Below the pieces are notes generated by a model that saw only the letters and a program-made list of their open reading frames with translations, did no database searches and had not been told where the DNA came from. This document shows, in pieces, positions 2,084 through 22,241 of a stretch of 64,000 bases of DNA. The position numbers were made by a program, and so were the translations under genes. Source of the DNA: an uncultured virus (IMG/VR IMGVR_UViG_3300012352_000670). Its lineage: Duplodnaviria; Heunggongvirae; Uroviricota; Caudoviricetes. The stretch lies in the IMG/VR virus record IMGVR_UViG_3300012352_000670; one strand, written 5' to 3'. Numbering within the stretch: position 1 is the first letter of the stretch; each line of letters starts with the position of its first letter.

Positions 2084-4093
2084 TTAGAGTTCGATGGTGG
2101 CTGCAGCGGTGCCACCAGTGGTGTCGCGCAATGCAGCAGCAACACCGTTGATTGAGATGGTCGAGGTGATCTTAAGAGCCTCGATGCCGACCTTAGCAAC
2201 ATTCTCAAAGGTCTCAGTGAACATCTTGTAGTCGTTGGTGCCGACTAGTGAAGAGTCACGGATGATACCTAGGTCTAGGGTACCGCCGTCTAGGAACAAG
2301 AATGTTCCCTCAGCGAATAGGTACCAAACGAAGCTGTCTGGGAACTCTAGAAGTGCAGATGCACCCTGTGAGCCGAAGACAGTTGCGTCTAGAGAAGCTA
2401 CTAGGTCAACGTTAACGGTTGCTAGGTAGCCGTCGATTTCTGACTTTGATACTGCAAGAGTACCGTCACCAGGCATCGATAGAGTTAGGTCAGCTGCCAT
2501 TGCCTCGTAGATCCATGAAGGAACGATTGCCTTCAAGCGGGTCTGTGGGTCAATGCGGTGACGTGAGCGGTAAGCAACAGCTGCACGACGGATCTGAACT
2601 AGGAAGTCACGACCAAAACCGATTAGGTTAGTGGTAGTAACAGCAGTCGATGCGTTACCAATCTTGGTAAGCAAGTTCTGCTCTGCTTCACGAGCGTGCT
2701 GTACAAGAGCTAGCTCGTTGTGACGAGCAATTAGCTCTGGGTAAGCGCGGGTCATCAAGTTACCGAACTGTAGCTGTAGGGTTACAGCGTCAGTTGAAAC
2801 GGTCTCTTCCTGAGCTGCAGTTACAGTCAAGCTGGTCTTGGTAGCGCTCTGTGGGTCCGCGTCAGTTGCAGCAGTCCATACACCAACAGCGTCAGCGTAG
2901 TCACCAGAAGCAAATGATGGTGGAGTTACGAAGCGGATACCGCCACGGTCAGCCTGGAAGCGAGGCAATGCATCGCGAACTGGGCGTACAGTGGTTGAAC
3001 CGATCGAGAAGATGTCGTACTTGACTTCGAATGGAGCAGCGTGGCCACCAGAAGCAACAAGTGCGTCCTGACCTACAACGTTACCAATCTTCAGTGCGTT
3101 CTCTTCTGCGTTAGCAGTTAGGGTACGCTCTTCTGGGTACTGGGTGGTGATAGATGCAACGATGTGCTGCTCTCCATCGCCGCCGTTTACACGACGTAGC
3201 GAGTGGATACGCTTCTCCATAGCCGAAGCTACTTCGTACATGTCGTTGATGGTGCTGCCTGCGGTGTAGCCAGGGATGTCTGCGCCAGCGGTGATTGCCA
3301 CTGGAGCTGCCTCTGATACCTGAACTACAGGCTGACGGTCAGCTGGAGCCTCAAAAGGCTGTTCTGCTGCGGCGCTCACTAGTGCCTGCTCTTTCTGCTC
3401 TTCTACGAGAGCGGTTGTTGTTTCTAAAGTGGTTTCTTCGGCTGATGCTTCTGATCCCTCTACTGCTTCTACAACTACCTCAGCCGAAGCTTCGATGGTC
3501 TCTACTTCTACCTCGGCAGCAGGTGCTTCTTCAGCAACTACTTCCTCAGCAGAACCGTCTGCAGTAATGGTCTCGTCCACAGTCTCAACCGATTCGGTCG
3601 ATAGTTCAGAATCTGATTCCTGGTCAATTGATGCTTCAGCTTCAGTCTCAGCAGAAGTTTCGGTCTCGGCTGATGCCTTTATGGCCTCATCCTCGTCTTC
3701 TTCTTCCTTTTCAGCAGGCTCTACTTCTTCAGCAGGGCTAGCCTCTTCAACTGGTGCTTCTTCTACAGGAGCCTCTTCAACAGGGGCGTCCTCTACGATT
3801 GGCATGTCTTCCATAGCCATTTCCTCTCCTTCTTCGGCTCCACCCTTAATACGGGCAGTAGCCTCAGCCGCACGAGCAGCTAACTCTTCAGCGAGGGCCT
3901 CGCGACGAGAAAGCTCACCACGTACGATGTCAAGGGAATCCGCAAGGGATGTCATCGCATCAACTGACGCAGAAGTTGGTTCATCAGCATCGATCGACTC
4001 AAACTCGCCGACGATCTGGGTCTGAAGCTCAGCGAGTTGTTCATCGCTAAGATCAGCCAGAGTGTCTAGCTGTGTTTTAATCTGGTCGTACAC
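2084..4093 (-). CDS. Major capsid hexamer protein with N-terminal acidic scaffold-like region
   Basis: 669 aa. Coiled-coil plus E/A-rich N-terminal ~240 aa, then ALVASGG, RPVRDALPRFQADRGG and FLFLDGGTLDLGIIRDS motifs of actinophage MCPs. GGAGG SD. Confidence 0.85.
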   Translation of the reverse strand: MYDQIKTQLDTLADLSDEQLAELQTQIVGEFESIDADEPTSASVDAMTSLADSLDIVRGELSRREALAEELAARAAEATARIKGGAEEGEEMAMEDMPIVEDAPVEEAPVEEAPVEEASPAEEVEPAEKEEEDEDEAIKASAETETSAETEAEASIDQESDSELSTESVETVDETITADGSAEEVVAEEAPAAEVEVETIEASAEVVVEAVEGSEASAEETTLETTTALVEEQKEQALVSAAAEQPFEAPADRQPVVQVSEAAPVAITAGADIPGYTAGSTINDMYEVASAMEKRIHSLRRVNGGDGEQHIVASITTQYPEERTLTANAEENALKIGNVVGQDALVASGGHAAPFEVKYDIFSIGSTTVRPVRDALPRFQADRGGIRFVTPPSFASGDYADAVGVWTAATDADPQSATKTSLTVTAAQEETVSTDAVTLQLQFGNLMTRAYPELIARHNELALVQHAREAEQNLLTKIGNASTAVTTTNLIGFGRDFLVQIRRAAVAYRSRHRIDPQTRLKAIVPSWIYEAMAADLTLSMPGDGTLAVSKSEIDGYLATVNVDLVASLDATVFGSQGASALLEFPDSFVWYLFAEGTFLFLDGGTLDLGIIRDSSLVGTNDYKMFTETFENVAKVGIEALKITSTISINGVAAALRDTTGGTAAATIEL

Positions 4094-4218: not shown

Positions 4219-7200
4219 TTAGGTAAGGAGTCTGAGCAGGGTGTTCATCTCTGACTGAATTTCAGCCTGAGAATAGACATCTGCACCGGACATAAAGGAC
4301 TTCAGGTTTGCGGTTGCAACGTCTGAGTCCTCTTTACCGATCTTTGCTTCGACTCGAGAAATCATCCCATCGATGAGTGTCTTTAGTCCGGCAGGTAGAT
4401 CGCTAAATCTAACTTTCTGAGCTTCCTTGCCGAATGGCAATGGAAGGTTGGCAATCGTCTTGCCTAGCTCCGCTGCAGTCGAGCGGACGTTTTCTAGAGA
4501 CTCAGGGTTTAGGGCCTTGGTGTCTAGACGGTCAATCATTCCTAGTAGCTCGCTGCTAGCTTTCGCTGAGTTCACGTAGTCGCCAGCAAACTCTAGGTTT
4601 TCAGCAGTCTCTACCTTTTCTAGGGCCTTCTGAAGACCAGCTACACCTAGGTTCTGCTTTAGACGAGCAAGAACCTTACGGTACTTGCCCTTAGCATCAC
4701 GAGGCTGAGTCTTTGGAGTGTACTTACTGCGACCCTCTGCGTCATAGACTTCCTTAGCAGTGGTCTTACCTGTACGGATGTCTTCAGCAATCTTGATCTC
4801 TTCTTCAGTCTGCTTGTCAGCTTCCTGCTTAGCTTCTTTCAGCTTTTCTAGATCGGCATCAGAAATTTCTTTGGCTGGAGCTTCTGCAAACTCTGCTAGT
4901 CGAGAGCGCATCGAAGCAACAATAGTAGCAGCCTCGGTTGATCCGGCTGACTTCCATTCGTCTGGAATTAGATATGCCTTACCAAGAGCCTTGGCTCGCT
5001 TAACAATGTGCTTGCGAACGGTAACACGCTTCTCGCGCTTTGCACGTCCATATGCCTGAATTGCATTACGTAGATCTTGCTCGTTACGAATAGGGTACGA
5101 GCCGTCTGGAAGAGCGAAGCCCTTGTCAGCAAGTTCAGATCGTTCTTCTTCAGAGAACTTAGCTAGCTCGGCAACAGCCGCAGCAACTAGAGCACGGGTC
5201 TTTAGTTCTTCTGCTTTAGTAGCAGCGGCAACAATAGCCTGCTTCTTTACAGCCTTCTTAGCTGACTTAACGCGAGAGCGTAGATCAGGAGCATTAGCCG
5301 AAAGCTCAGCTAGGTTGTATGCACGCTCAGACAGAGTTGCTACGTGCTGGCTCTTCATGATTGCCATCATGCTTGCGCCAGCCGCAACTAGAGCCATAAC
5401 CTTACCTGAAGCAACCATTGCGCGAGCAATTGGGAAGCCTGGAACGTTTACTTGGCAAACAGCAACAAGCTCAAGTGAGCCGTTGATTGGACGCCAGTCA
5501 CCAGAAGGAGCAGAAGCGCGAAGTGCACGAATCTGCATTTCAGTTGCGTCTGGACGTACAGAGCCAGAGCACCAGATACCGTACTCGTCTTCACCCATGT
5601 GGACATCGGCGATTGCAGAGGCGGTGTCGTCATAGTGCTTAGCCGCAGAAGCTGCGTTAGCAGTTAGTGGAGCGTGTCCACCAGCAAGAGTTAGCTGACC
5701 CACTGGCATGTCAGTTCCATCGGCACAGCGGACTACGCCAGTGTGGAAGTAAGCATACTTGCTCTTTGAGCGAGGTGGGCGGGTAGAGCGAGGCATACCG
5801 ATGTGGTTTACGTGCCAAGCTGCAATGTGTCCGTAAATGCGACCAGAAGGGTCAACGGTGATCGGGGTAGCCTTAGTTAGCTTAGGGTCCTTGAACCACT
5901 CTGCTGGTGGTGTCATAGGAATCTCGCCGTCAATGAATCCTGAAGCAACTAGCGGTGCGCCAGAGAATTCTTGTTCGACGGATTCTTCGTATATTCCGTC
6001 AACTGGAATCACTTCATCCTCCTGGTCTCCCGCTGGTTGTTCTTCAATAGAGATAGTGCATTCTTGGAATGCAGGCTTAGCTACAATTGTAGCAGCCATT
6101 ACACGGGCGTGATTTATAGTTAGCTTTTTCTTGCCTACGTCTTCGGTGTCCTCGGCATTTTCAGTCTTCTCTTCTTCTGCCTCGAACTGGTCTAGATCTG
6201 CAGAAACACCACGGATGAATCCGTTACGTACTAGACGCTCTGCCTCTTGACCATATGCTCCTGTATCAAAAACACCATAGGCATTTCCAATACCGTTTTC
6301 GGTTCTTTCTACGTAATCAATACGTCCAACTACTACAGATCCCATGTGACCGTCGCCGGTCTTGATCTGCCATAGGAGTGGAAGTGGAAGCTCTCGAACT
6401 GACAGAGAGTCCTTTACAAACTTACGACCATCTCCTGATTCCAAGTCTTCTGGGATCAGTAGAGGAATGTTGAACTTGGCACCGTGCTCCATTTTTGCAC
6501 CAGCGACCAGCCCTAGACGCTCTCTCGCGTCATTTGCTCTCGCAGTTAGTTCGGACTGAGCAACTACTGACTGGACCAAGTCCATCTCGCTCGCAAATAG
6601 GCTAGAAGTTTCGTTACGACGGCCCGGGTTTAGACGGCTACCAGTGTAGACACCAGTAGCGTCCTTGTGGCGTAGCTGGCAGTATCCCTTAGCACGTGGG
6701 CCCATGTACTTTGAAAGTTGACGGACGCAACGAGTCCAGTCGCCTGGAGTGCCCCAACGAATCTTGGCAGCGCCCTTACCACGAGTCCAGTATTGGCGAA
6801 GCTCTTCCGCGTTGCCACGGTTACGGTCTAGGCCGCCAGCAGCAACAAATGCATCAAAGACAGTTAGCAAGCTAGCTGCAACAGCCTCTGGAGCAGATTC
6901 TTCTGTAGGCTTTCCCTCTGCCATCTGAGACAAGACATCCTTTAGGGATTCTTTATCTAGTTCAATTACTGGAGGTTTGGTGGCCGAGCGTAGGTCAGCT
7001 AGAGTTTGGTCATCCTGAACCCACTTATCTCCCTCACGCTTATAGACAAGAGGAGTAGTGGAAGTAGCAGTCTTAGGGATAACAGCAACGAGATCAACCA
7101 TTGCCTCTGGGTCTTGCTGATCAACAATGGCAAGGTATCTAGGTCTTACGTCAGAAGTAGAAGGAGTAAGAATCTCTTCTTTTTCTTCTGCCGCTGCAAT

Positions 7201-8724
7201 AATAGAAGTCTCAGTGAACTTGGCATTTGGCCAACGCTTTTTAACAGCAGCTTTGTCAGCCGCGTTCTTTGGCTTGTAGCGTTCCTTCTCTACCCAAGAC
7301 GCGTAGTTGTTGATAAATGCATCAACATCTAGCTTCGGTAGAGTTCCCGGAAGGTGAGCCTTCTTGCTGTTCTGAGGAGTACGAGGCTCCCCGATGATCC
7401 CAGAAAAGTCCATAGGAGCTTTGCTAGCGTCATCAACACGAAGTGAGTTTGGTCGGCTGTTTGCCTTCTCTGCTGGCACTAAGTACTTAGAGCCAACCTT
7501 GACGGATCTACCGTCTTCAAGATCAACGGTGACAATGCCTGTAGCACCGTCAATGTCTCGGATTGTGCCAGAACCTCTAGCAGCATCTCCACCGATAGCT
7601 ACTTTCTGGCCTACCTTAGCAAACTGACCGGTAGCATTACGAGGCTGGTTTCCAGCATTCGCTGAACGTTCTTCTGGGGTGTAGTTTCCATCCTGATCAG
7701 AAGCTGCAGCAGTAATGACTTGGTCAATGAATTCCCAGTCTTCTCCGCCGATGCCAGCTTCCATTAAAGCCGCTTCGTCAGCGTCTAGGTCAAAAACAGA
7801 AGTCTTGCAATATGGGTCTACAGCCATACGCGCTGCAATCATAAGTGCAGACTGAGGGTCAATAATTACGTGAGACTTTTCCTCAAGATCGTAGACGTCA
7901 TCTAGCATGCGGTCATAGGTCCAGATGTCGCCATCAACGTGACCTAGGTTGTCCCAACACCCGTCATCCCAAACGTGCACAGAACCATCAATATCGATCA
8001 TGTAGAGTCGGTCAATGCCAGAACCATCTAGGCAGACTCGAGCCAAGAACTCTGGGCCGTAGTTTGCGTCAAGCTCGTGAGCGTACTTAAAAGGATTTAG
8101 CTCTTCATTCTGCTTAGGGTAGTTGATCTGATCAACGTAGTTAGAAACAGTGTATCCACCCGCAGTGACAGAGTTTTCCTTTTTGTCTTCGCGCTCAACG
8201 ATGGCACGTGCCCAGCGCCAAGCAGCGTCTCCACCCCAGAGTGCCCATGCGATACGTCCGTTAGACGGGAAGTTGTCTTCGCCCGGCTTCCAGCCTTTAC
8301 CCTTTTTGTCAACTTCGTGACGAGGGAAGTACTTTGCAATGTGGCGGATCTTACGGATGCCAATCTGACCGCCCTTAGCGAGGGTGCGGGCAGTGTTAAG
8401 GCCGACGGGAGTTCCGCCTCTGCCTTCTTCTCTGCGCCAAGCTAGGGCTTTTTCCGCCTCTGCCTGAGCTGACTTAGGAATGGTATACATCCTGTCAGCA
8501 GATGCAACAATAGCGTCTTCTTCTAGAGTGGCTATGACCTTGTCAGCAAGCAGTTGCTCTGATTGAGTGAGAGGAGTCGATGAAAGCTCCCACTTGTTTT
8601 CTGCAAATAGGTCTAGCGCTGCACCGCTGGCGACAACGGCTCCTACGGCAGTATCAATAACTACACCGTGAGTGTTGTTAGCATAGAATGCTAGTTCGCC
8701 AGAGCGGCCGATTAGGTGGTTCAT
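4219..8724 (-). CDS. Capsid maturation protease, multidomain fusion
   Basis: 1501 aa directly upstream of MCP. Central protease-like block (ESGDGRKF...LPLLWQ...GHMGSVVVGRID...GVSADLD), GRIYGHIAAW block, and accessory head domains (WALWGGD; KIRWGTPGDWTRC; LPDGSYPI). Confidence 0.75.
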   Translation of the reverse strand: MNHLIGRSGELAFYANNTHGVVIDTAVGAVVASGAALDLFAENKWELSSTPLTQSEQLLADKVIATLEEDAIVASADRMYTIPKSAQAEAEKALAWRREEGRGGTPVGLNTARTLAKGGQIGIRKIRHIAKYFPRHEVDKKGKGWKPGEDNFPSNGRIAWALWGGDAAWRWARAIVEREDKKENSVTAGGYTVSNYVDQINYPKQNEELNPFKYAHELDANYGPEFLARVCLDGSGIDRLYMIDIDGSVHVWDDGCWDNLGHVDGDIWTYDRMLDDVYDLEEKSHVIIDPQSALMIAARMAVDPYCKTSVFDLDADEAALMEAGIGGEDWEFIDQVITAAASDQDGNYTPEERSANAGNQPRNATGQFAKVGQKVAIGGDAARGSGTIRDIDGATGIVTVDLEDGRSVKVGSKYLVPAEKANSRPNSLRVDDASKAPMDFSGIIGEPRTPQNSKKAHLPGTLPKLDVDAFINNYASWVEKERYKPKNAADKAAVKKRWPNAKFTETSIIAAAEEKEEILTPSTSDVRPRYLAIVDQQDPEAMVDLVAVIPKTATSTTPLVYKREGDKWVQDDQTLADLRSATKPPVIELDKESLKDVLSQMAEGKPTEESAPEAVAASLLTVFDAFVAAGGLDRNRGNAEELRQYWTRGKGAAKIRWGTPGDWTRCVRQLSKYMGPRAKGYCQLRHKDATGVYTGSRLNPGRRNETSSLFASEMDLVQSVVAQSELTARANDARERLGLVAGAKMEHGAKFNIPLLIPEDLESGDGRKFVKDSLSVRELPLPLLWQIKTGDGHMGSVVVGRIDYVERTENGIGNAYGVFDTGAYGQEAERLVRNGFIRGVSADLDQFEAEEEKTENAEDTEDVGKKKLTINHARVMAATIVAKPAFQECTISIEEQPAGDQEDEVIPVDGIYEESVEQEFSGAPLVASGFIDGEIPMTPPAEWFKDPKLTKATPITVDPSGRIYGHIAAWHVNHIGMPRSTRPPRSKSKYAYFHTGVVRCADGTDMPVGQLTLAGGHAPLTANAASAAKHYDDTASAIADVHMGEDEYGIWCSGSVRPDATEMQIRALRASAPSGDWRPINGSLELVAVCQVNVPGFPIARAMVASGKVMALVAAGASMMAIMKSQHVATLSERAYNLAELSANAPDLRSRVKSAKKAVKKQAIVAAATKAEELKTRALVAAAVAELAKFSEEERSELADKGFALPDGSYPIRNEQDLRNAIQAYGRAKREKRVTVRKHIVKRAKALGKAYLIPDEWKSAGSTEAATIVASMRSRLAEFAEAPAKEISDADLEKLKEAKQEADKQTEEEIKIAEDIRTGKTTAKEVYDAEGRSKYTPKTQPRDAKGKYRKVLARLKQNLGVAGLQKALEKVETAENLEFAGDYVNSAKASSELLGMIDRLDTKALNPESLENVRSTAAELGKTIANLPLPFGKEAQKVRFSDLPAGLKTLIDGMISRVEAKIGKEDSDVATANLKSFMSGADVYSQAEIQSEMNTLLRLLT

Positions 8725-8785: not shown

Positions 8786-8953
8786 TTATTTGTCAGGTGT
8801 GATATCTTTGATGACAACACCGTTTTCATCAACGAATTCGCTGTCATCTTCATAATCCGGGACTGGATTGCCAAGTATCTTGGCTAGAAGAGTCCAGTAC
8901 TCAGGATCATTCTCAGTATATCCGCCTAGCATGTCAGGCTTTTCTTTACTCAT
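8786..8953 (-). CDS. Small acidic hypothetical protein (55 aa)
   Basis: MSKEKPDMLGGYTENDPEYW...; start overlaps the end of the upstream gene; GGAG SD; below the ORF-track cutoff. Confidence 0.5.
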   Translation of the reverse strand: MSKEKPDMLGGYTENDPEYWTLLAKILGNPVPDYEDDSEFVDENGVVIKDITPDK

Positions 8954-11219
8954 CTGAGTCTCCATCTGATTTAGATTTGTTTGATGATCGGTAACCCTCG
9001 ATAGGGCTCCAGTCTCCCAGATCCATACCTAGCAAATAGTCTACTACCTTCTGAGCTTCAGAAGAGGCCTTCATAACCATATCAGGGTTGTCCTGTAGTG
9101 CCTGTAGCCAGCTCTTTACATAGGCCGCGGTGTTGTCAAAGTCACTGTTTACGCCGAACATGCTAGCTAGGATCGCTGAAGAAATTTCCGCGATAAGCTC
9201 TTCTTCGCCTCGAGCTGCATTGCTTGTTCCATAGTTCTTAGTTAGCTCGGTGCGGTCAAGGCGGTCCTTGTGTCCGGTCGAGTGAGCTAACTCATGAGCA
9301 ATAGTGTCAAACATGTCTTCTGGGCTGTTGAACTGTTCCTTGGTTGGAAGAGTAATGACGTCAGAAGCCGGGTTCCAGTTCGGAGAAGACGAGTGGCTTC
9401 CGTACGCACCAACATAGGTGTATGAGACCTGAGGAGCCTTCAGACCCTTTGCTTCCATTGACTTCTGATAGCGTTCCAGAATGAAATCCTGAGACTCTAG
9501 AGGAGTTTTTGGTTCGCCCGCTTCGGCCTTAACCGTTGGCAGGTTTAGGCCATCAATCTGTTCGACGTTGAATACAGTCTTTACGCCGAAGGTGACATAG
9601 CTACCAGTTACGGTCTCTTCGCCAGTAGAAGAATCCTTCTCTTTCTTGACCCTCTTGTAAGGAACAAGAATTTGAACACCCTTAGAGCCTTTACGAACTT
9701 GACCACCTAGTTCGGTAGCTTGGTTGTAGGTCATCCAACGAGGATCTGAGTAGCCAGCAAGCTCTTGGTGTAGTCGAAGAACGATAGAGTTAATGCCGCT
9801 GTAGATGTGCTTTGACGCTGGGTTACGTGGAACGAATGCACCAGCATAGTTAGCATCATCCTTGAATGGCTTACGCCAAGGAGCTTTACCTTCTTTAATC
9901 TTTTCCAGTAGGCCAGATAGAACTCGCTCTTTGGCGTCCTTGCTGTCTGACACTGAATTGGCACGGTTGAAAGGCTTCTTACCTGGGGCTTGCTCAAGGC
10001 CTACTAGAGGAGCATCAACTGAATCAGGATTAGTGTCTGGGTTCAGGCTCGAGTCTTCTGGAGTAGTAGATGCCATTCTTGCTGACTGTAGGGTCGGAGC
10101 AACCTTAGTCTTTAGTGGGTTCCACTGAGGAAGAACGTCATTACCCAGCAGGTAGTCCGCAGCCAGCTGAGCACGAGTCATGGCGTCAGTCACGGCCTTG
10201 TCGGCATTCACGCCGTCTAGGTTCTTGATGTGGGTGAGTAGATAGCTAATCGAGTTGTCTGGATCAGAATTTAGCCCGAACATCTTTGCTAGAAGCATGG
10301 AGCCTAACTCAGCGGTTAGCTCTTCTTCTGCGTAGGCATTACTGTTCCCCTCCAGTGCCTTCTTAACTTCTTCTCGGTTAAGTCGGTTAGTTCTACCAGT
10401 GCTGTGAATAAGCTCGTGAGCAAATGCATTGAACCACGACTCGTCGCTGTCAAAGTTTGCGCGGAGTGGTAGTCGTACGCTATCAACGTCTCTACCGTAA
10501 TTTGGTGACCAGCGAGGATTTTGATCTTTATCTAGCTGAATACCGAAGATCTCTGGAGTTTTTACATCTCGGAGAGTTGCAGCTTCGCGCATCCTGTCGA
10601 GAACAATATCTACAGCTTCCTTTGCAGTATATGACTTGTTGTCGTCAGCGTTGTATGGAGCGATTCCTTGAATCTGGTCACCGTTAAAAACAGTAACTTT
10701 TCTGAACTCAAAGTATTCAACAACCTTGCCATCGCGGTTAGCGACATAGAAGCTAGGTACGAGAATCTGAGTACCCTTAGTTCCGGCTGGAATCGAGCCA
10801 CCCGCCTGAGCAACCTGAGAGGCGCTCATCCAACGAGGGTCGCTGAATCCGTTTTCCGAGGCCGCATTTTCTAGCGCAAGCAAGTTAGGGCCCGTGTAGT
10901 GGGTGTCACTTGCAGGGTTAACTGGGAGAGGTCGATTAGCGTCCCTATCCCATTTGCGCGCCCAAGCTTGGATACTCTTAGGGGTACGTAGCTTCTCTAA
11001 TACATCAGCAAGAACGCTAGATGCCGCGGACTTGTTGGTCTCGGTTACAGAAGCAAGCTTCTCGTCAAACTGCTCCGAGGTAAGCTCGAGCGGATTAGTT
11101 TTAGATCCTGGTTCACCTTCAGGCACTGCAGGGCGAACAGAATTAGTAGTCGCAGGCTTAGTGCGGTACTTATCAAGGATGCTAGAGATTCTTGCTAAAT
11201 CTGGAGCGTCCTGATCCAA
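8946..11219 (-). CDS. Polyvalent protein with tandem ArdC-N (DUF1738-like ssDNA-binding) + zincin MPTase units; probably the -1 frameshift extension of the upstream ORF
   Basis: Two copies of P.NPAS..HY.G.N...DPRWM....Q....GG, each followed by HELxHSTG..RL.R and EEL.AE. TTG start with weak SD. Confidence 0.85.
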   Translation of the reverse strand: MDQDAPDLARISSILDKYRTKPATTNSVRPAVPEGEPGSKTNPLELTSEQFDEKLASVTETNKSAASSVLADVLEKLRTPKSIQAWARKWDRDANRPLPVNPASDTHYTGPNLLALENAASENGFSDPRWMSASQVAQAGGSIPAGTKGTQILVPSFYVANRDGKVVEYFEFRKVTVFNGDQIQGIAPYNADDNKSYTAKEAVDIVLDRMREAATLRDVKTPEIFGIQLDKDQNPRWSPNYGRDVDSVRLPLRANFDSDESWFNAFAHELIHSTGRTNRLNREEVKKALEGNSNAYAEEELTAELGSMLLAKMFGLNSDPDNSISYLLTHIKNLDGVNADKAVTDAMTRAQLAADYLLGNDVLPQWNPLKTKVAPTLQSARMASTTPEDSSLNPDTNPDSVDAPLVGLEQAPGKKPFNRANSVSDSKDAKERVLSGLLEKIKEGKAPWRKPFKDDANYAGAFVPRNPASKHIYSGINSIVLRLHQELAGYSDPRWMTYNQATELGGQVRKGSKGVQILVPYKRVKKEKDSSTGEETVTGSYVTFGVKTVFNVEQIDGLNLPTVKAEAGEPKTPLESQDFILERYQKSMEAKGLKAPQVSYTYVGAYGSHSSSPNWNPASDVITLPTKEQFNSPEDMFDTIAHELAHSTGHKDRLDRTELTKNYGTSNAARGEEELIAEISSAILASMFGVNSDFDNTAAYVKSWLQALQDNPDMVMKASSEAQKVVDYLLGMDLGDWSPIEGYRSSNKSKSDGDSDE

Positions 11220-11228
11220 TCCAGGCTC

Positions 11229-11258
11229 AGCCCCCTCTTCGGGGGCTAGGCTTTTGGG
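11229..11258 (-). other. Candidate programmed -1 ribosomal frameshift signal
   Basis: C_CCA_AAA slippery heptamer (11258-11252), then hairpin AGCCCCC-GAAGA-GGGGGCT. The -1 frame is open into ORF 8946..11219. Confidence 0.7.
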
Positions 11259-14200
11259 GAGGTGCCGCCATTAAGCTGTTCTACCCTGTCGGCGTAGTCT
11301 TCCAGCTTATTAGCGATCTGATCTCCTTGGTTTCGACGAGTAGTACGGAACCATGCTGCAGCTGAACGAATCTTTTCAACTAGGACAGCTGGATCGTCAC
11401 CGTACTCTTTAATCAAATCTTCTAGAGACTCCTGCGAGCCATCATTGAGCAGGCGAGCCTCTAGAGGAGGAAGATACTTGTTCTCATCTGCCATACTCGC
11501 GCCAACCCAGTCGGCAGCGTCATACTTAGAGTCGAAGTCTTCGCCGTAGCTCTCCGAGTCTTGACCAGGAGAAGTCATGCGAGCTTCCCACTTGTCGGTC
11601 TCCTCGTTGAAACGTACTGAACCTTCCCAGCCGCCTCCGCGAACATCGCCAACAATACCGCCATCATCATCGTTTAGTCGGTCAGCGATCTCATCTGCGT
11701 CTGAAGGGTAGTAGTAAGAAATTAGATCTTCAATTTCATCAAAAACCTTACCAAATTCAAAGGTACTTCCCATGTCGTCCGGGTTGCGCTTAGCTGCTTC
11801 GATAGGCCCCATATCGGACTCGATCTTGGCGAGCAAGTCGTCAGCTGACTTCTTCAGGCGAGCCTCTAGTGCCTTGCCTTCTTCTGATTCAGGGCGCATC
11901 GCTTTGTATGCATCCATCAACTCGGAGTAAAGGTAGTAGGCATCATCAATATCGTTCGGGTCAAGGCCCTCTACAAATTCTTTACTTAAGAACGCGTAGC
12001 CTTTTTCATCGCTGTTCTCGGTATCCTCGGCCAACGAAACCAACTCTGGCTTCATCTGCTCCCAAGATGTTCCGTACTGCTTTCCAGCGTTCTGATCAAA
12101 ACCCTTATCACCAGACTCTAGCTTAGAAATAGCATTGTCTAGGTCAACGTTGTAGTCACCAAAACGGCCATCTTCACGTAGACGCTTCAAAGCATCAACA
12201 TCACCACTCTGAACTAGGCTGTCAATGTACTTCTCCATACCGCCAGCAACATTGTCCATATCCTTCAACATGCTGATGATAGATGAAACGTCGCCCTTTG
12301 AGCGGTTTTCTAGGTCCTTAAGAATTTCCTCACGGTCAGCGTCAGACAGACCCTTAGCGTAAACGTCACGCTTTACAGAGTCAATCATCTTCTGAGAAGG
12401 CTTGCCGTACTGGCCTAGGTTTTCCTTGTCACCCAGTTCGCGAAGCTTGCCAATAAATGCACCAGCCTGAGCCTTGGTCAGGTTCTTAGATTCCAAAGCT
12501 TCGGTGATTGCCTGAGCCGTGTCAGCGTCAACGCCGTTCTTGCTTTCGAAGAGACCCTGTAGATAGCTGTACTGAGCATCAGTGGCTGGTTCCATCATCT
12601 TTGGGGACAGAGTCTTGGTTTCTCCAGGTGCCTGATCAAAACCAGCACCAGAGTTGCGCCAGTCTTCGTAGATCTCATCGTAGAGCTTGTCGCGATCATC
12701 GATGGTCGCTGCAAAGTCTTCCGCTGCTTTACGTGCTTCTTCTTCAGAATCGTAAGTCTCGGTTTTTTCGTAGCTGTGTTCGATGTTCTCGTCTAGCAAG
12801 AACTGAGACGCAGACTTCGTTACCTTGAACTTGTCGCCGTCTTTCTCTACAACAACTTCCGCACCGTCACCGAAGTACTCTGAGCTGCCGTCTGGGTTAG
12901 TTGTTAGACGGTTACCCGCTGACTGATCAAGACCATCTTCTCCATTAGAATCAAAGATAGCGTCTCGGTCACGCTTTTCATCGCGGTTTGACTGTGCATT
13001 CCATGCCTCTAGAACATCGTTATAGGCTTCATTGAAATTACCATCTTCCCAGAGATAGTCGTACTCACGGCGTCGAGCTGCCCACTTGAACTGGTCTAGC
13101 CCTTCCTCGATCTTGTTTCGCGCTTGTTCAGCCTCGAACTCGGTAAGTTCTCCGTCCGCTTCCTTCTGGTCAATCTCTTCAAAGTCACGCTCGTGATCAT
13201 TCCAAGCACGCTTGATTGCATCCTCGATGCGCTCCTTGATGTCATCATCAGCGTCAACGGCAGAGTCTGGCATACTCCAGTCTGGAGTTCTTCCAGGAGC
13301 TTGGTCAAAACCTTCGGTCTGCTGGCGGTCCGGGCGACGACGTAGCTTGGCAGTAAGCTTTTCGATTGAATCACGGTCTAGACCAGTTTCAAGCTGAGCG
13401 AGGATATCGTTCATCTCGTCAGGAGTTAATTCCTTAGTAGATAGGTAGCCCTGAAGTGAGTTGATCTGGCGCTCGGTTGGCTTGCTTGGGTCAACGCCAG
13501 GCTTGAAAGGCTTCTTGGTTACCTCTCCAAGAATTGATGCCATCTGAGCCTTAGTCAGGTTGCGGTTGTCCAGTGCATCTTGAATGGCTTTTTCGGTTAC
13601 AGGCGAGATGCCGTCACGCTCTGAGCGTAGCTCTTCTAGGAAAGCATACTGCTTGTCAGTCGCTGGCTCCATCTGCTTTTCAGATAGTGGCTTAGCTGGT
13701 GCCTCTGCATTCTGGTCAAGGCCAGCGGCTGGCTCAAGTTCATCAAGCTTCTTGTCTAGGTGTGCGTTGACACCGTCGCGGATTTCGGAAGCAATGTCGG
13801 TCTCATCGTGGTTTGGTCCTGCAACACCAGTAGCGATTTCATCGCCATCTTCGTTGTAGACGCCCCAGTTGCGGTAACCGTCTTCGTCCTCGTCGCCGAC
13901 CCACATGCTGTCGTCGCTCTCACCGTTGAAGATCTTGTTTGCTAGGTCATCTACCTTCTTAAGTAGGCCCTCTTTATCAACAGCGTCACGCGCCTGCTCC
14001 TGAGCGGCGTCTGCCTGCTCTTTTTCCCACTTAGCGCGGGCACGCTTTTCTACCTGCTCTGGCGAGTTATAGAAGTCTTCGCGAGCCTTACGATCGGCCT
14101 CGCGCTTGGCCTTCTTTTCTTCTGCATAGTTAGGGTTTTCTAGACCGTTTTCCGACATAGCAGCAACGCGGTCAAGGAAGTCAGGCCAAGACTCTCGTCC

Positions 14201-16321
14201 GTCTCGAACTAGAGAATCAACGAGCTTACCATCAACAGAGATTTCCATCTCGTCCCAAGGGATGTAGCCCTTCTCGTCATCAAACCAAGAGCCATCGCGG
14301 TACTTAGCCTCTACGCGACCGTCTGGAGATGTGTAAGTTTCCTCTCCTCCGGTAAAGTTGCCGTCTGCATCTTGTTCGAGGAAGAACTTGTGGTCGCCTA
14401 GGTCCTTGGCAATCTTCTTACCAGCGGCGCTTAGTTTTGGTGCTTCACCCGGGGCTTGGTCAAAGCCAGGGTCGTCCATGTAGCTTTCGTTTAGTAGCTG
14501 AGAAAGCTTGTCCTCATCGTTAAGGGTCTCGGCGAATTTCTCTGCATCAGCTAGAGCTTCCTCTTTCGTCTTGAACCTAGAGGTGGTGAAGTAAGAACCT
14601 TCACGGTTTTCGTCAATTAGATCGCGAGCTTCTTTTTCGACCTTGTAGCCGATGAACTTGCCACTCTTGTCAAATTCTGGAGCTACTTCTACGTAGCCCT
14701 TGTCGGTACTAAAGTCGTGTGTTCTGCCATCTTCAGTCTTGACTAGGTTGCTCGGGTTAAACCAAGATTCTTGCTTGAAAAGCTTGTCTAGGCCGTCAGC
14801 AATATCTCCTTCTTCGAGGTCACGCTGGGTAGCACGGTATGAACCAATCGGCTGACCGTCGTATTCAACAGAAATGCCAGAAAGGTCGGTGGCTCCGAAG
14901 CCGACATCGCCTTCACCGTCTGGTTCCCAAGTTAGCTTTAGCTTGCCGTCAGGAGAAGTATAGGTGGCTTCGCCGTCTTTGTACTGGCTCCAGTTCTGAG
15001 GATCAGATAGGTGATCCCAGTCAACTGCACTGTCAAACCAGTCCTTACCTTCTCCAGCGTTCTGGTCTAGGCCTGGCTCTTCTGGAGTGCCATCGCCCTC
15101 TCCATTAAGAGCATCGTAGGTCATGGCGATCTTGTTCAGACCCGCCCAGTTCTGGCCAACACCGAGAATCTTGCCGTCTTTGTCGCGAATTTCGAATAGC
15201 GGGACGTTAGGGTCAATCGCATTGCTTTCGCCAGCGCCTTCAACCATGTAGTCACCATCTGGCTGAGCGTCAACTGCCTTAACAGTCTGACCAGACTTAG
15301 AAGTGAAAGAACCATCCTCGTTCTTGGTCCAACCCTCTGGAGCGTCGGTGCGAGTCTTCAGGAAGTCCTCTAGTGGAATTGCAGAGGCGATATCAGCCTT
15401 GGTTGGGTTTTCAATAGACTTGTTAGCCTTTAGGCCCTTTACCTTAGAAAGAATTCGCTTAGAAAGAATTGCTTTAACTGGCGCAGTCTTAGCCGCGTCA
15501 ATTGTGTAGATGCCGTCAGGAATCTCTGGGCTATCTTTGATTTCGATTTGGAAGTTGTTAGTTCCGGCTGGTGCGCCAACAATACGGCCATCTTCCGAGA
15601 AGATGCTTCCGTCTTTACGACTAAAGAATCCGCGTAGGCGTCCAAACTCTTCTGCGAATCGACCATCGCGGTGACGACGACGAACCGCTGCCAAAGCCTT
15701 TGCCATTGCAGAGCGCATAGCGAAGCTCATCTTGAAAGCGGCAGTGATAGGAAGAACTACATCTTCTGGAACGTAGCCCGCTGCAACCAAGGCACCAAGC
15801 TTCGCGCTAGCGTAATCTGCCTCTACGGACCCAGGCTTAGTTGCATATGCGCTATATACGTCTAGACGTGCTTGCTCTGAAGCAATACGTGGGTCTCCAG
15901 CCACCCAGAGAGCGGTAACCTGAGACAGAGCAGAAGCCGTCATGGCTACGCGGTTGGTGCGTGAAGGGTGCCCTAGAGGAAGGAAGTCGGTGTATTCGCC
16001 AAGGCCAGAGGCGAGGATACCGTTGTGTGAGTAGTTAAGAACGTTGTCAACAGCATTAGCTGCGAATAGCATCCACTCGCTCGGGTCAGCATCTAGGTTG
16101 AAGTGGATTGCTGTCTCAATGATGTTCTCGATAGACGTCTCTGGCACCTGACGAGCAGAAGCAACTAACGCGTTCTGAGTCTTCGCGTAGTCTACGATCG
16201 CTAGGCGAGATAGGTACTCGGCATCCTCGGTCGTGTAGTCGCTATCAGCGTAGAAGTTTTCGATCTTGCTGATGAGATTAGTGAATGCTGAGCTCACTTT
16301 AGGCCTTCCTGAGCAGGGCAA
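11246..16321 (-). CDS. Giant acidic modular (polyvalent-like, putative internal virion) protein
   Basis: 1691 aa in the head module; seven G[LF]DQ linkers and internally duplicated modules (EPATDxQY...LTKAQ; TYTSPDG; EEA..AE.FA.T..D.DKL). Start codon uncertain. Confidence 0.7.
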   Translation of the reverse strand: MPCSGRPKVSSAFTNLISKIENFYADSDYTTEDAEYLSRLAIVDYAKTQNALVASARQVPETSIENIIETAIHFNLDADPSEWMLFAANAVDNVLNYSHNGILASGLGEYTDFLPLGHPSRTNRVAMTASALSQVTALWVAGDPRIASEQARLDVYSAYATKPGSVEADYASAKLGALVAAGYVPEDVVLPITAAFKMSFAMRSAMAKALAAVRRRHRDGRFAEEFGRLRGFFSRKDGSIFSEDGRIVGAPAGTNNFQIEIKDSPEIPDGIYTIDAAKTAPVKAILSKRILSKVKGLKANKSIENPTKADIASAIPLEDFLKTRTDAPEGWTKNEDGSFTSKSGQTVKAVDAQPDGDYMVEGAGESNAIDPNVPLFEIRDKDGKILGVGQNWAGLNKIAMTYDALNGEGDGTPEEPGLDQNAGEGKDWFDSAVDWDHLSDPQNWSQYKDGEATYTSPDGKLKLTWEPDGEGDVGFGATDLSGISVEYDGQPIGSYRATQRDLEEGDIADGLDKLFKQESWFNPSNLVKTEDGRTHDFSTDKGYVEVAPEFDKSGKFIGYKVEKEARDLIDENREGSYFTTSRFKTKEEALADAEKFAETLNDEDKLSQLLNESYMDDPGFDQAPGEAPKLSAAGKKIAKDLGDHKFFLEQDADGNFTGGEETYTSPDGRVEAKYRDGSWFDDEKGYIPWDEMEISVDGKLVDSLVRDGRESWPDFLDRVAAMSENGLENPNYAEEKKAKREADRKAREDFYNSPEQVEKRARAKWEKEQADAAQEQARDAVDKEGLLKKVDDLANKIFNGESDDSMWVGDEDEDGYRNWGVYNEDGDEIATGVAGPNHDETDIASEIRDGVNAHLDKKLDELEPAAGLDQNAEAPAKPLSEKQMEPATDKQYAFLEELRSERDGISPVTEKAIQDALDNRNLTKAQMASILGEVTKKPFKPGVDPSKPTERQINSLQGYLSTKELTPDEMNDILAQLETGLDRDSIEKLTAKLRRRPDRQQTEGFDQAPGRTPDWSMPDSAVDADDDIKERIEDAIKRAWNDHERDFEEIDQKEADGELTEFEAEQARNKIEEGLDQFKWAARRREYDYLWEDGNFNEAYNDVLEAWNAQSNRDEKRDRDAIFDSNGEDGLDQSAGNRLTTNPDGSSEYFGDGAEVVVEKDGDKFKVTKSASQFLLDENIEHSYEKTETYDSEEEARKAAEDFAATIDDRDKLYDEIYEDWRNSGAGFDQAPGETKTLSPKMMEPATDAQYSYLQGLFESKNGVDADTAQAITEALESKNLTKAQAGAFIGKLRELGDKENLGQYGKPSQKMIDSVKRDVYAKGLSDADREEILKDLENRSKGDVSSIISMLKDMDNVAGGMEKYIDSLVQSGDVDALKRLREDGRFGDYNVDLDNAISKLESGDKGFDQNAGKQYGTSWEQMKPELVSLAEDTENSDEKGYAFLSKEFVEGLDPNDIDDAYYLYSELMDAYKAMRPESEEGKALEARLKKSADDLLAKIESDMGPIEAAKRNPDDMGSTFEFGKVFDEIEDLISYYYPSDADEIADRLNDDDGGIVGDVRGGGWEGSVRFNEETDKWEARMTSPGQDSESYGEDFDSKYDAADWVGASMADENKYLPPLEARLLNDGSQESLEDLIKEYGDDPAVLVEKIRSAAAWFRTTRRNQGDQIANKLEDYADRVEQLNGGTSPKA

Positions 16322-17065: not shown

Positions 17066-17520
17066 TACTGAACCCCTAAAGTTGATTTCAATTGCCACTG
17101 CCACTTCTTGTGCATGTCAATACGCCCAGCTAGGAAGTCAGCAATACCTTGCTCGTTACATGCGTCAGCCATACCGAAAGCCTGTTCATAGCAAAGAATG
17201 ACTCCCTGATTCACGCGAGCCAGAGACTCAACCATGAGGACCGGATCTCCGAGCTCCCTGTCCTGACGGGTAACACAAGTCAGCTCAACGAAGTCGGTGA
17301 TCAAGTAGGGGGCATCGTAACCTAGCTTGCGGATGTTTTCAGCTAGCGGGTCAATCGCACCGTCAATGTCAGCGTAGATCTCTGCAAAGAACTCGTGAAA
17401 CTGAGAAAAGTTAAGGCCCTTCACATTCCAGTGATATCCCTGAGCTAAGAACCCAAGCGTAGTGACATCAGCTAGCAGATGCGCAAGCTGTTCGGCTAGT
17501 CCGTCTTTTTCTTGGATCAT
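17065..17520 (-). CDS. dps: Dps / DNA starvation-protection ferritin-like protein
   Basis: HWNVKGLNFSQFHEFF..IY...D.LAE.IR.LG and HKKWQWQL signature motifs. Confidence 0.9.
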   Translation of the reverse strand: MIQEKDGLAEQLAHLLADVTTLGFLAQGYHWNVKGLNFSQFHEFFAEIYADIDGAIDPLAENIRKLGYDAPYLITDFVELTCVTRQDRELGDPVLMVESLARVNQGVILCYEQAFGMADACNEQGIADFLAGRIDMHKKWQWQLKSTLGVQ

Positions 17521-19259
17521 GGTGTCGGTACCTCTGGTTCTGCTGGTGGCGCTTCAGGAGTAGCTGGCTCGGCCGAAGGTTCTGGAGTAGGGCTGCCTGG
17601 ACCGCCTTCGAGAATGTTCTCGATCTCTGGGGTCATCGGGGCAACTGAACGAGCTTGGCTAGCTGCGTTAATGATGTCCTTCAGCTCTGGAGCAACCGCT
17701 TCGAGCATCGACTGGGTAAGCTCTGGAGTGATCATACCCTTCTCGACAACAAGACGTAGTGCAAGTTCCTCTGGGCTTGGTGCATCTGCTTCGGAGAAGC
17801 CGTGTGCACGACGCCAAGTGTTGAATGACACTGCCATCTTGTCAAAGCCCGAGTCAGCATCAGCTGCGCGGTCATTACGAGTAGCGACCTGTGATGGGTC
17901 ATACCAAACCTGAATACGAGCTACTTCATCTTGGTCGTAGCCGTTGGCAATTAGGTATGGACGCAAGTAAACAACAGTCAGTGCGTCAGCAATAAGAAGC
18001 ATCAGAGGCTCGATGTGCGCCTTGTAGAGGGCTTCATCAATCTGAAGGGCGTTGGAGTACTTAACGTTAGCAAGTCCCGTCACAACGTCTTTAGGGACGT
18101 CTAGACCCTGCATAATGCGCTCTAGTACACGGTCAGCACGAGCAACTAGTGATGCGTCGAATGAACGCTCGAACTTGAACTGCTTAATCTTGTCGCCAAG
18201 CTCTGCTGGACCACGAATGATAAGTGGAACAACAGCAGACGCTGAGTCCTCGTCCTTAATCGGAGTGGTCATCGCATCAATGAGCTGGTCCTCGAAGTCA
18301 TCAGCAGCTTCTTCGGTGTTGTAGAGCTCGTTGTATTCGCCATCTTCATCATATGGGTAGTCAGGATCTGGGCTAGCTGCAACAGACAAACCATCAGGCA
18401 GGTACAAAGCACCCGCATTGAGGCGAGAACGGGCCGTAGCGCGGAAAGTACGGTTGAGTAGCAACAATTCCGCACAAAGATCTAAAAGTCCGCGTAGCGA
18501 GCTGTCAGACTCCATTGAGTAGCGTGGGTGTGCTTTCCAGATACGTCCGATGAATGCATCAGAAGGTAGCCTGATTGCATTTTTGCCAGCCTGGCCCGAA
18601 GAAGAACCGCTAGCATCGCGAATAGGGTTGATTGTGTAGTTTCCACGAGAGTCAAGCTGTAGTTCATCCACTGAGCGGATGTCCCATGACTCAGGGATCT
18701 GTGAGCCAATACGTTCTGGTACCTGAACCAAGTAGCATTCACCAGTGACCTGAAGATTTAGTGCTGCATCCTTTAGAAGACCTGCTTGGCCTCCGTAGGC
18801 CGAGTCAAGACGAGATAGCGCACGCTGAGCAGCTGACGCCAACTGAGGGTCAACAATCTTTGACATGTCAACTGGTACTGGAGACTCCGAAGGGTCGTCT
18901 ACAGCAGCAGCGTAAAGGCGGATGCGTGATACGACAGACGCCACAAGGTTAAACGCATACTTAACTTCACCAATTGCATCGTAATACTCCCATGCTTCGG
19001 CTTGCCATGCAGTCGCAGCTGACTGACGGCGGTTCTTAAACATCTCGGCTTCAGTTTTGTCACCAATTCGAATCTGAGCAGCGGCGGCAGTAAGTGGACG
19101 AGGTGTGTTGTAAGCTGCAGGCTCTGCGTATACGAGACCGAACGAGTCTACAGAGATGCCTGGAGCGATAGGGGTTGCACTTCGGGGAGTAGATGCACGC
19201 AACCCGGCAGCCAATGCTCTACCGCGAGCATTTTTGTTGTTCTTTTTAAAAATTCCCAA
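17517..19259 (-). CDS. Portal protein
   Basis: 580 aa downstream of terminase; WQAEAWEYYDAIGEVKYA..., SRL..AGALYLP and SAVVPLII motifs of cluster-B-like portals. Confidence 0.85.
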   Translation of the reverse strand: MGIFKKNNKNARGRALAAGLRASTPRSATPIAPGISVDSFGLVYAEPAAYNTPRPLTAAAAQIRIGDKTEAEMFKNRRQSAATAWQAEAWEYYDAIGEVKYAFNLVASVVSRIRLYAAAVDDPSESPVPVDMSKIVDPQLASAAQRALSRLDSAYGGQAGLLKDAALNLQVTGECYLVQVPERIGSQIPESWDIRSVDELQLDSRGNYTINPIRDASGSSSGQAGKNAIRLPSDAFIGRIWKAHPRYSMESDSSLRGLLDLCAELLLLNRTFRATARSRLNAGALYLPDGLSVAASPDPDYPYDEDGEYNELYNTEEAADDFEDQLIDAMTTPIKDEDSASAVVPLIIRGPAELGDKIKQFKFERSFDASLVARADRVLERIMQGLDVPKDVVTGLANVKYSNALQIDEALYKAHIEPLMLLIADALTVVYLRPYLIANGYDQDEVARIQVWYDPSQVATRNDRAADADSGFDKMAVSFNTWRRAHGFSEADAPSPEELALRLVVEKGMITPELTQSMLEAVAPELKDIINAASQARSVAPMTPEIENILEGGPGSPTPEPSAEPATPEAPPAEPEVPTP

Positions 19260-19559: not shown

Positions 19560-19921
19560 AGCCCGTCCTTCAATGCAGTGATAGTTTTGTATGCATTCCA
19601 ACTGCGAAGACGTGATCCGCATCCGCAATTGGTGTCTTTTTGGAATGCTAGCATCTTTCCAGACTTGGTTACAACCCTATAATCACTTTTTTTGTCTGCA
19701 GCGGGCAGTAGAAGGTCATATTTCTCTTGAAAAATGATCTGAGCCCCGTTAGGAGAGTCCTGAGCAACAAAAATAGCCTCGTCGGTCACAACAACTCGGG
19801 TGGTTGCCCTATAAAACGCATCCTTGGTGGCTGGATTTGACTTCAGAGAGTAAACATCCTCAAAAGTTCCGGCTGGAACTACTGCCAAGTGCGCCGGAAA
19901 CACGTCTAATAGTACTTTCAT
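19556..19921 (-). CDS. Hypothetical protein with C-terminal CGCG motif
   Basis: Translationally coupled between terminase and the DUF1360-like gene. Confidence 0.6.
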   Translation of the reverse strand: MKVLLDVFPAHLAVVPAGTFEDVYSLKSNPATKDAFYRATTRVVVTDEAIFVAQDSPNGAQIIFQEKYDLLLPAADKKSDYRVVTKSGKMLAFQKDTNCGCGSRLRSWNAYKTITALKDGL

Positions 19922-21324: not shown

Positions 21325-22241
21325 TAGAATCCAATCTCTGCATCTCTACTGTCATGGTACCGATTCATAAAATATTTAGAATAGTAGTCATGTATCGCTA
21401 GACCTTGGTGATCTTCGTCAAGAGCGTCGCGAAAAAACTTTTTGTATTTACTGTGTTTATATTCTAGCTCATAGTTCCGACAGTGGGCTTCTATCGCACT
21501 TTCCTGATTAGTCAAGTCGAGACCTAGAAGGCTCTCTCGAACATCCCCCGAATAGTGTTCTAGATCTGTGCGCCACTCTGGAGATGCCCATGTAGTCGCT
21601 ATCAGAGTTATCCCCTGCGCCTTGCAGTGAATGTCCAACGCCAAGTACAAAGCGAAAACAAGTGAGTCAATTTGCTTGGTGTCTACTAGTTTCATCGGAT
21701 CGTCTATGCCTTGGATGGAGTCGCTCTTCCTGAAGTCCATAGCTGATGCGTAGTAGTACTCTCGATCGGGGTCAGGGAGGTTGATAAAAATAGTTGAAGG
21801 ATTGCCGTACAGATTTATGTATCTAAATATCTGAGAGATCGTCTCCGCAATAGACGCTCCGGGGAAAGCAATATTGAAATAGCCTGAAAGTTTCTCTGTC
21901 TTGATTAGTTCTTGATAAACCTTGTACGCCCACGTCTGCTCTAGCAGAAGTCCCTCGCCTGCGGTGACAGAGCATCCAGCGAAAAGAACGTGCTTACCGT
22001 CATGCTTGCTGGTGAATTCATCAGATCTAAGGCCGTCAGAATTTAGAATGTAAAGCTGGCTTGGGTCGAAGTTCTTGTCAATCTTGGATGCATTTTTACA
22101 GACGGTCTTAAATCTTGAAGTTGTAGTGCTGAACTTATAAAGCTCGGACCCTGGCGGAATAGTTTTTGTTGGTTCGATATTCTCGGCCCTAAATGATTCT
22201 ATGGATTCTCTAATTCCCGGAGCATCTACCCACCTACGCAC
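21324..22241 (-). CDS. SGNH/GDSL-like hydrolase-fold protein
   Basis: HVLFAGCSVTAGEG block-I-like motif, N.AFPGAS, C-terminal D..H. Confidence 0.5.
   Translation of the reverse strand: MRRWVDAPGIRESIESFRAENIEPTKTIPPGSELYKFSTTTSRFKTVCKNASKIDKNFDPSQLYILNSDGLRSDEFTSKHDGKHVLFAGCSVTAGEGLLLEQTWAYKVYQELIKTEKLSGYFNIAFPGASIAETISQIFRYINLYGNPSTIFINLPDPDREYYYASAMDFRKSDSIQGIDDPMKLVDTKQIDSLVFALYLALDIHCKAQGITLIATTWASPEWRTDLEHYSGDVRESLLGLDLTNQESAIEAHCRNYELEYKHSKYKKFFRDALDEDHQGLAIHDYYSKYFMNRYHDSRDAEIGF

Follow-up and report, generated by a model that had tools for sequence, protein, structure and literature searches.

Known frameshifts in phages are found mainly in tail chaperones, and some in capsid proteins. 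In dnaX of Escherichia coli, a heptamer with lysine codons is followed by a 3' stem-loop about 6 nucleotides (nt) away, and slipping truncates the protein to gamma. Retroviral and totiviral Gag-Pol systems make much of an N-terminal product and, more rarely, a frameshift fusion that adds enzymes, including a protease. According to the report on PRFect (PMC10885494), the frameshift of tail chaperones is conserved across divergent phages despite sequence difference. Passages of the same report describe pairs of MuF-like and VIP2 ADP-ribosyltransferase genes which are predicted to be joined by a frameshift, being fused elsewhere, and which were put among 'false positives' without conservation analysis (PMC10885494). 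Polyvalent proteins have been proposed to be packaged, injected and autoprocessed by MPTase in the text of Iyer et al. 2017 (PMC5512222), and ArdC of the R388 plasmid is described as protecting incoming DNA against host restriction (PMC7213743). Here we analysed a 64-kb stretch of DNA, called the window below, from the uncultured Caudoviricetes virus record IMGVR_UViG_3300012352_000670. Two open reading frames (ORFs) meet in it on the minus strand, ORF1 and ORF2, and ORF2 lies in frame -1 relative to ORF1. Our data indicate, with a probability of roughly 85%, that the junction is a programmed -1 ribosomal frameshift site within one long head-module gene, which would yield a fusion protein of 2450 amino acids (aa). 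The features of the junction are as follows.

16304..16310, minus strand: Shine-Dalgarno (SD)-like AGGAAGG, 6 nt 5' of GTG 16297
11246..16297, minus strand: ORF1 (0 frame), 1683 aa and TAG, likely with a GTG start
11252..11258, minus strand: putative slippery heptamer C_CCA_AAA in the phase of ORF1, with CCA in the P site and AAA in the A site
11246..11248, minus strand: 0-frame stop TAG, one codon (GCC) past the heptamer, in the spacer and at the stem base
11229..11247, minus strand: predicted stimulatory hairpin; stem AGCCCCC/GGGGGCT of 7 bp, loop GAAGA
11211..11222, minus strand: G-L-D-Q linker GGA TTG GAT CAG, which spans a supposed TTG start at 11219..11217
8946..11258, minus strand: -1 frame extension (ORF2), 770 codons from the heptamer to TAA at 8948..8946; a linker, then two ArdC-N + MPTase-PolyVal units

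The 3' end of ORF1 reads ...ACC TCC CCA AAA GCC TAG. An earlier note on this DNA had reported the heptamer, the stop and a hairpin 4 nt on, and all three were confirmed at their places on the minus strand. From the heptamer the -1 frame reads PKSLAPEEGAEPGLDQDAP and is stop-free across 770 codons, so that the ORF listed at 8946..11219 is continuous with it, as the note had claimed. The fusion of about 2450 aa expected there agrees with the computed 2450 aa, but the upstream length of 1691 aa most likely does not hold. This length comes from the open-reading-frame list, in which ORF1 begins at TTG 16321. GTG 16297 is most likely the true start, because AGGAAGG lies 6 nt upstream of it and the homologue alignment begins at that Met; ORF1 would then have 1683 aa and the fusion 2450 aa.

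ORF1 consists of a conserved N-terminal domain of about 400 aa with no recognised fold, followed by modules with G[LF]DQ linkers between them. In ORF2, a Pfam scan matched MPTase-PolyVal (PF18818, E 2.8e-48) and ArdcN (PF08401, E 3.7e-47) twice each, and a PHROG scan matched phrog_7245 (anti-restriction, E 1.5e-117). The order of an ArdC-N domain and then a zincin metallopeptidase domain is that of ArdC. The domains are those of a polyvalent protein, with several effector-type domains including MPTase and ArdC-N, and they form one polypeptide with ORF1 only upon frameshift. The junction has the hallmarks of a -1 frameshift site: an X_XXY_YYZ heptamer in phase, an open -1 ORF without a conserved start, a 3' structure, and conservation together with a coding signature.

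In the mechanism that we propose, ribosomes on ORF1 would arrive at C_CCA_AAA with CCA paired to tRNA-Pro and AAA to tRNA-Lys. The hairpin of five G:C pairs, whose core lies 6 nt downstream, would then sit at the mRNA entrance and oppose unwinding. By tandem slippage, a share of the ribosomes would move back by one base (CCA to CCC, AAA to AAA) onto CCC_AAA, and pass through the G-L-D-Q linker into the two ArdC-N + MPTase units to make the 2450-aa fusion. Unslipped ribosomes would decode GCC, terminate at TAG and so release the 1683-aa form. The two products would have the N-terminal part in common, and the ArdC/protease tail would be carried by a fraction only.

The core of the hairpin pairs 11245..11241 with 11235..11231. 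The full 7-bp stem starts 4 nt past the heptamer, or 3 nt if the U-G pair of the 63-nt fold is counted, so that the canonical 6-nt spacing holds for the G:C core only. The window contains a single CCCCC-N5-GGGGG, where 0.02 would be expected, and the heptamer alone is common (8 in the window vs 8.06 expected). The 63-nt fold has a minimum free energy (MFE) of -27.4 kcal/mol (z = -2.29), and 5/200 shuffles fold equally well; 45-nt segments across lineages range from -13.7 to -24.8 kcal/mol. Because no single element is decisive, the significance of the site rests on the combined elements and their conservation. We rejected a pseudoknot in favour of a simple hairpin, as the loop sequences vary by lineage and have no conserved downstream partner across the lineages compared. 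No conserved SD-like stimulator was seen upstream of the heptamer in the cassettes compared, and an Rfam scan returned no family at E <= 1 except a chance match to a long non-coding RNA elsewhere. One further structure was predicted downstream.

11201..11224, minus strand: second, weaker hairpin CUGGA...UCCAG; sequence invariant in the closest clade only, absent in L014/L018

This second hairpin is probably not essential.

Conservation among relatives carries the main argument. With the last 400 aa of ORF1 as a protein query, 7995 candidates were scored and gave 26 homologues of 1497-2200 aa with 36-68% identity. All 26 end in [N/S/A]PKA-stop, with C-termini that otherwise diverge, and ArdC/MPTase Pfam domains were found in none of the 26. 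The invariant Pro-Lys-Ala-stop is what a conserved slip site would predict. IMG/VR and metagenome contigs were then scanned with protein queries, alignments and two pattern scans, and the homologous junction was present in 19 related contigs. In 17 of these, the heptamer is followed by one Ala codon (GCC, GCT or GCG), TAG or TAA, and CCCCC-loop-GGGGG, and the next ORF is in -1; the stop stands one codon past the heptamer in every one of the 17. The retention of heptamer and hairpin in divergent homologues (17/19 contigs) supports the frameshift proposed in the earlier note. Including that of the window, 12 distinct cassette sequences have the -1 arrangement. The heptamer is C_CCA_AAA in 15/19 related contigs and A_AAA_AAA in 4/19. 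The latter, which is also X_XXY_YYZ in the same phase, is confined to two lineages, L024/L045/L046 and L044, whose upstream identity to ORF1 is 33-38%. Eight loops are found over an unchanged stem: GAAGA, AGCGA, AATGA, AACGA, GAAGC, AAAAA, GATGA/GAAAA and, in L044, AAAG. Across 13 distinct cassettes the stem is paired in 93.4% of cells, three pairs show compensatory change, and 0/500 shuffles reach the observed values. A scan of IMG/VR with a degenerate cassette pattern gave 10 stretches, all of them on contigs of the ORF1 gene family.

A second in-phase heptamer, A_AAC_CCA, overlaps the first 3 nt upstream (within AAAAACCCAAAA) in L002, L003, L008, L010, L021 and L041. It is absent from the window and is not considered essential. 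Some searches for relatives gave no result. The GenBank phage collection had no match to the junction (blastn) or to the ORF1 C-terminus (tblastn), and the nearest genome record, G001, had no match to the junction. Metagenome contigs searched with the extension alignment A3 gave none that was confirmed, and genome contigs searched with alignment A5 gave none. Among longer proteins, no match was found with the extension N-terminus (1349-3850 aa) or the ORF1 C-terminus (2961-5000 aa), which is weak evidence.

The start codons of the extension bear on a different explanation, in which a 1-nt change broke an older fusion into two independent genes, ORF1 and ORF2, and ORF2 is translated from its own start (TTG 11219 in the window, others in the relatives) or by re-initiation after TAG. 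Gene callers do give ORF1 homologues as stand-alone proteins, and the window TTG at 11219..11217 is preceded 11 nt upstream by SD-like GAGGGGG. The earlier note had called the SD of this TTG poor; an SD-like sequence is present, but it lies in the 3' arm of the hairpin. The TTG is itself the Leu codon of the G-L-D-Q linker motif. It reads TTA in L001, L002, L003 and L008 and CTA in L010, so that it is not conserved as a start, and independent initiation, which the note had named as a possible refutation, is not favoured. Among aligned contigs the position is TTA in most, namely those of DNA runs X1 and X3 (2/3 DNA runs) and of RNA run X18. Position 11217 is polymorphic (C>T on the plus strand), and the window carries the minority synonymous variant. 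The first ATG, GTG or TTG in the -1 frame stands at +39 (window only), +69, +129, +132, +144, +228, +246, +255 and +432 nt past the heptamer, and no SD-like sequence precedes those of the relatives (+69 to +432). The extension is conserved as protein from the heptamer onward, ahead of any start codon. Between the stop and the first starts, the three frames compare as follows.

-1 frame: 48% of differing codons synonymous, 0 stops
0 frame: 20% of differing codons synonymous, 16 stops
+1 frame: 5% of differing codons synonymous, 34 stops

Every indel in this stretch is a multiple of 3. Judged by this coding signature, the stretch is translated in the -1 frame. Because the signature is found there without starts, ribosomes would reach the stretch only by a change of frame from ORF1. 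A broken gene would also be expected to lose the perfect heptamer, the stop and the hairpin, which are kept across lineages only 33-40% identical upstream. We therefore consider two separate genes improbable, and a frameshift within one gene remains our preferred explanation.

A change of frame could also arise in the transcript, if RNA polymerase inserted one base in the run of A or C and some mRNAs were thereby in frame. At the site, two lineages carry seven A in a row, and the RNA evidence stops short of it. However, most lineages have runs of just four A and three to four C, which are far below the lengths known to cause polymerase slippage. Slippage of the polymerase needs neither a hairpin at ribosomal spacing nor the strict X_XXY_YYZ phase. 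This explanation appears very unlikely to us. An error in the sequence itself, that is, an indel in a homopolymer that hides a single in-frame ORF, might be suspected at a site so rich in homopolymers (C4, A4, C5, G5). However, 17 further contigs, which come from many assemblies, have the same frame relation, and where contigs of three independent DNA studies span the site they match the window without letters gained or lost. The contig of RNA run X18 shows no indel either. An assembly indel, against which the earlier note had asked for a read check, is excluded by this, and we give this explanation a negligible probability.

What follows the cassette differs between lineages. The extension holds ArdC-N + MPTase in L018, L021, L024 and L044, and ArdC-N was partly seen in L041, where the extension start differs behind the same cassette. 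In L025-L027 (L025 5803..8379, L026 9060..12047), the same cassette leads to an extension with an ADP-ribosyltransferase domain, ADPrib_exo_Tox. Such varied modules behind one cassette would fit exchange at linkers, and in the closest clade about 60 nt show no nucleotide changes. The hairpin and its flanks might thus serve another purpose, as an RNA processing or stability element or as a recombination joint for module swap, with an incidental heptamer. This would leave unexplained the in-phase heptamer, its swap to another perfect heptamer, the fixed stop, the coding signature and the missing starts. Scans for intrinsic terminators and promoters listed none at the junction, and no T-run follows the hairpin. 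A purpose other than frameshifting is accordingly a highly improbable account of the site.

The linkers are consistent with a single polypeptide made by frameshift. The fusion has 10 G[LF][DE]Q linkers against 0.16 expected, and the maximum in 2000 shuffles was 3. The tenth is supplied by the -1 reading directly 3' of the hairpin, which bears out the earlier claim that a linker typical of the upstream protein appears when the DNA is read this way, and another stands between the two ArdC/MPTase units. Other lineages have related motifs such as GLDQ, GFDQ and GFSQ at the same position. No G[LF][DE]Q motif was found in the neighbouring 1501-aa protein. The linkers are candidate protease cleavage sites or module boundaries.

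In-frame relatives were a further check, since the earlier note took in-frame homologues as a refutation. Short forms of the L022 type do exist, as do L028/L029, but the latter keep the heptamer and the hairpin and have a stop in the -1 frame. L022 (1430 aa) and L049 (1317 aa) each consist of one ORF, and in L022 the N-terminal domain is joined in frame to ArdC-N + MPTase. The fused polypeptide appears to be a normal product, because the in-frame relatives L022 and L028 encode it. The L028 and L029 contigs come from different samples. As far as the edge of the site they match L025 at 65% identity, and at the site they have the following element.

L028 9033..9069, and the same in L029: inverted cassette, CGC CCA AAA GGT AGA followed by a CCCGGC-GATAA-GCCGGG stem

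Here the 0 frame continues into ArdC-N + MPTase, the -1 frame has a stop one codon after the slip, and the heptamer is one base closer to the hairpin. This looks like a 1-nt deletion that shifted the stop to the -1 frame. L028/L029 favour recoding, because heptamer and hairpin are retained while the stop has moved. That the heptamer, the stop and a covarying stem are all kept suggests that slipping still occurs in L028/L029 and truncates the protein in the manner of dnaX. The phage DSL-LC01 (OQ999401.1, L051) has a 3289-aa gene after its portal gene, and the N-terminus of its product is 35% identical to that of ORF1 over 249 aa (E 4e-27). It contains a candidate cassette.

L051 35376..35406: in-phase C_CCA_AAA at residue 2214, GGTGA (TGA in the -1 frame) and an AGCCCC-UUCG-GGGGCU hairpin

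We treat the possible truncating frameshift of DSL-LC01 as a lead, from a single record without flanking homology. A search of IMG/VR for the inverted cassette with two 15-mers gave 142 matches, about chance level, and only L155/L176 among them belong to the family; they lie on the same contigs as L028/L029. One candidate, L065, with an in-phase heptamer and a G:C-rich stem in an ORF of more than 2000 aa, was rejected as chance since it has no similarity to the family. Among cultured terminase relatives, Microbacterium phage Zooman (at the end of gp70) and Gordonia phage GodonK have no cassette. Zooman gp70 shares part of the ORF1 N-terminal domain (E 4e-7).

Several points weigh against a programmed frameshift at the junction. 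Our support for it comes from sequence comparison. The window TTG with its SD-like GAGGGGG makes some independent initiation possible, and the contig of RNA run X18 (151 nt) ends inside the hairpin and is uninformative on slip-site transcripts. The stem begins 4 (or 3) nt past the heptamer, which is shorter than usual, and the fold z-score of -2.29 is modest. All three compensatory stem pairs come from the L028 lineage. Cultured phages gave no example of the cassette, which both Zooman and GodonK lack. C_CCA_AAG is given as highly shift-prone in E. coli by Atkins et al. 2016 (PMC5009743), which speaks for the site, although the window heptamer ends in A and that statement concerns ...AAG.

If ribosomes do slip here, we infer that the two forms would be made in fractional stoichiometry, that both would be packaged in the capsid and injected, and that the phage would need both. 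The pointer to packaging is the position of the gene between portal and major head protein. Wherever MPTase was seen in the lineages scanned, it stood downstream of the site; it was found neither upstream of the site in ORF1 of the window, in 3023 aa of L026 and in 3010 aa of L028, nor, by Pfam, in the extensions of L025-L027. It is conceivable, if rather doubtful, that the system works like Gag-Pro-Pol. The short form would be the abundant capsid-internal cargo or carrier, and the rare fusion would bring the only MPTase and the ArdC single-stranded DNA binder into the particle; there, or once injected, the protease would cleave both forms at their linkers. A mirror-image truncating version would have evolved in L028/L029 and perhaps in DSL-LC01, and the ratio of the forms, rather than the fusion itself, would be under selection. 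Together with the linkers, the proposals of Iyer et al. 2017 make such a scheme attractive, though it is unproven.

ORF1 and ORF2 lie within the head module of the phage, as indicated by the neighbouring genes.

22234..23673, minus strand: carbamoyltransferase gene with matches to Carbam_trans_N/C (E 1e-40 to 4e-53), a short way upstream of the terminase
19921..21324: terminase, head-module context from Pfam/PHROG scans
17517..19259: portal, head-module context from the same scans
8786..8932, minus strand: small 48-codon ORF between ORF2 and the 1501-aa gene
4219..8724, minus strand: 1501-aa protein with PHROG matches to portal, head maturation protease and virion structural protein in residues 722-1197
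2084..4093: major head protein, head-module context from the same scans

The counterpart of the 1501-aa protein in Zooman is gp72 (1552 aa). The N-terminal motif of the 48-codon ORF, TENDPEYWTL..., is also conserved 3' of the ArdC/MPTase gene at the distant locus L022, which makes a genuine small gene probable. The carbamoyltransferase gene may have an auxiliary or DNA-modification role. A tRNA gene search of the window found none.

The N-terminal domain of ORF1 was modelled with AlphaFold2 (mean predicted local distance difference test 71.1, predicted template modelling score 0.45). No structure in PDB or BFVD matched it by Foldseek at E <= 0.001, and a PDB profile search gave nothing below E 0.88. 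The top wide structural match (VIA) was a designed helical repeat with Z 6.7. Runs containing the window sequence are labelled freshwater, aquatic or wetland metagenomes. At 73.7% identity, the window terminase resembles that of DSL-LC01, a phage assembled from a lake metagenome, with Actinomycetia given as host in its record (PMC10611076). An actinobacterial host for the window phage is a weak inference from this.

If the frameshift is real, a conserved recoding site is added to the giant polyvalent proteins that are thought to be injected against host defences, and the arrangement suggests that the dose of injected enzyme is set at translation. ArdC/MPTase and ADP-ribosyltransferase ORFs without start codons, which are annotated as separate truncated genes, should then be joined to the upstream gene. 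The cassette of about 40 nt is easily testable, and nature offers variants with two heptamers, eight loops and an inverted form.

Compared with the G/GT tail assembly chaperone of phage lambda, the locus is alike in being a structural-module gene with an X_XXA_AAZ heptamer and in having a short product and a long one that is identical at the N-terminus. It differs in lying between portal and major head protein, whereas the lambda type lies between tail tube and tape measure, and no tail chaperone family came up when ORF1 and ORF2 were scanned against Pfam and PHROG. The products are also larger (1683 and 2450 aa), and the extension carries enzymes, ArdC-N/MPTase or an ADP-ribosyltransferase. 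With the MuF-like/VIP2 pairs, as PMC10885494 describes them, the locus shares a head-associated carrier and an effector in different frames, and the extension of L025-L027 has ADPrib_exo_Tox; unlike those pairs, ORF1 has no MuF match in a Pfam scan. The polyvalent proteins in the account of Iyer et al. are likewise very large multi-module phage proteins with ArdC-N and a zincin MPTase, adjoining head genes, but here part of the protein would be reached by recoding only, and the main text of PMC5512222 does not contain the word 'frameshift'. A literature search, with supplements outside its scope, turned up no report of frameshifting in phage proteins of the polyvalent or ArdC-bearing kind. The likeness to Gag-Pol, by analogy, is that the protease (MPTase) is present only past the site, on a shared N-terminal part. 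The window belongs, however, to a double-stranded DNA tailed phage without homology to these viruses, and the L025-L027 extensions show an ADP-ribosyltransferase but no MPTase in a Pfam scan. With dnaX (tau/gamma) the locus shares a heptamer with Lys codons and a 3' stem-loop. It differs in that slipping in the window would make the protein longer, that no SD-like stimulator was seen to be conserved upstream, and that the proteins are unrelated. The dnaX arrangement itself, with an open 0 frame and a -1 stop after the slip, is absent from the window and is found in the sequences of L028/L029 and DSL-LC01, and its truncating logic matches L028/L029 and apparently DSL-LC01. The kind of frameshift that we propose is known, and its gene context is new.

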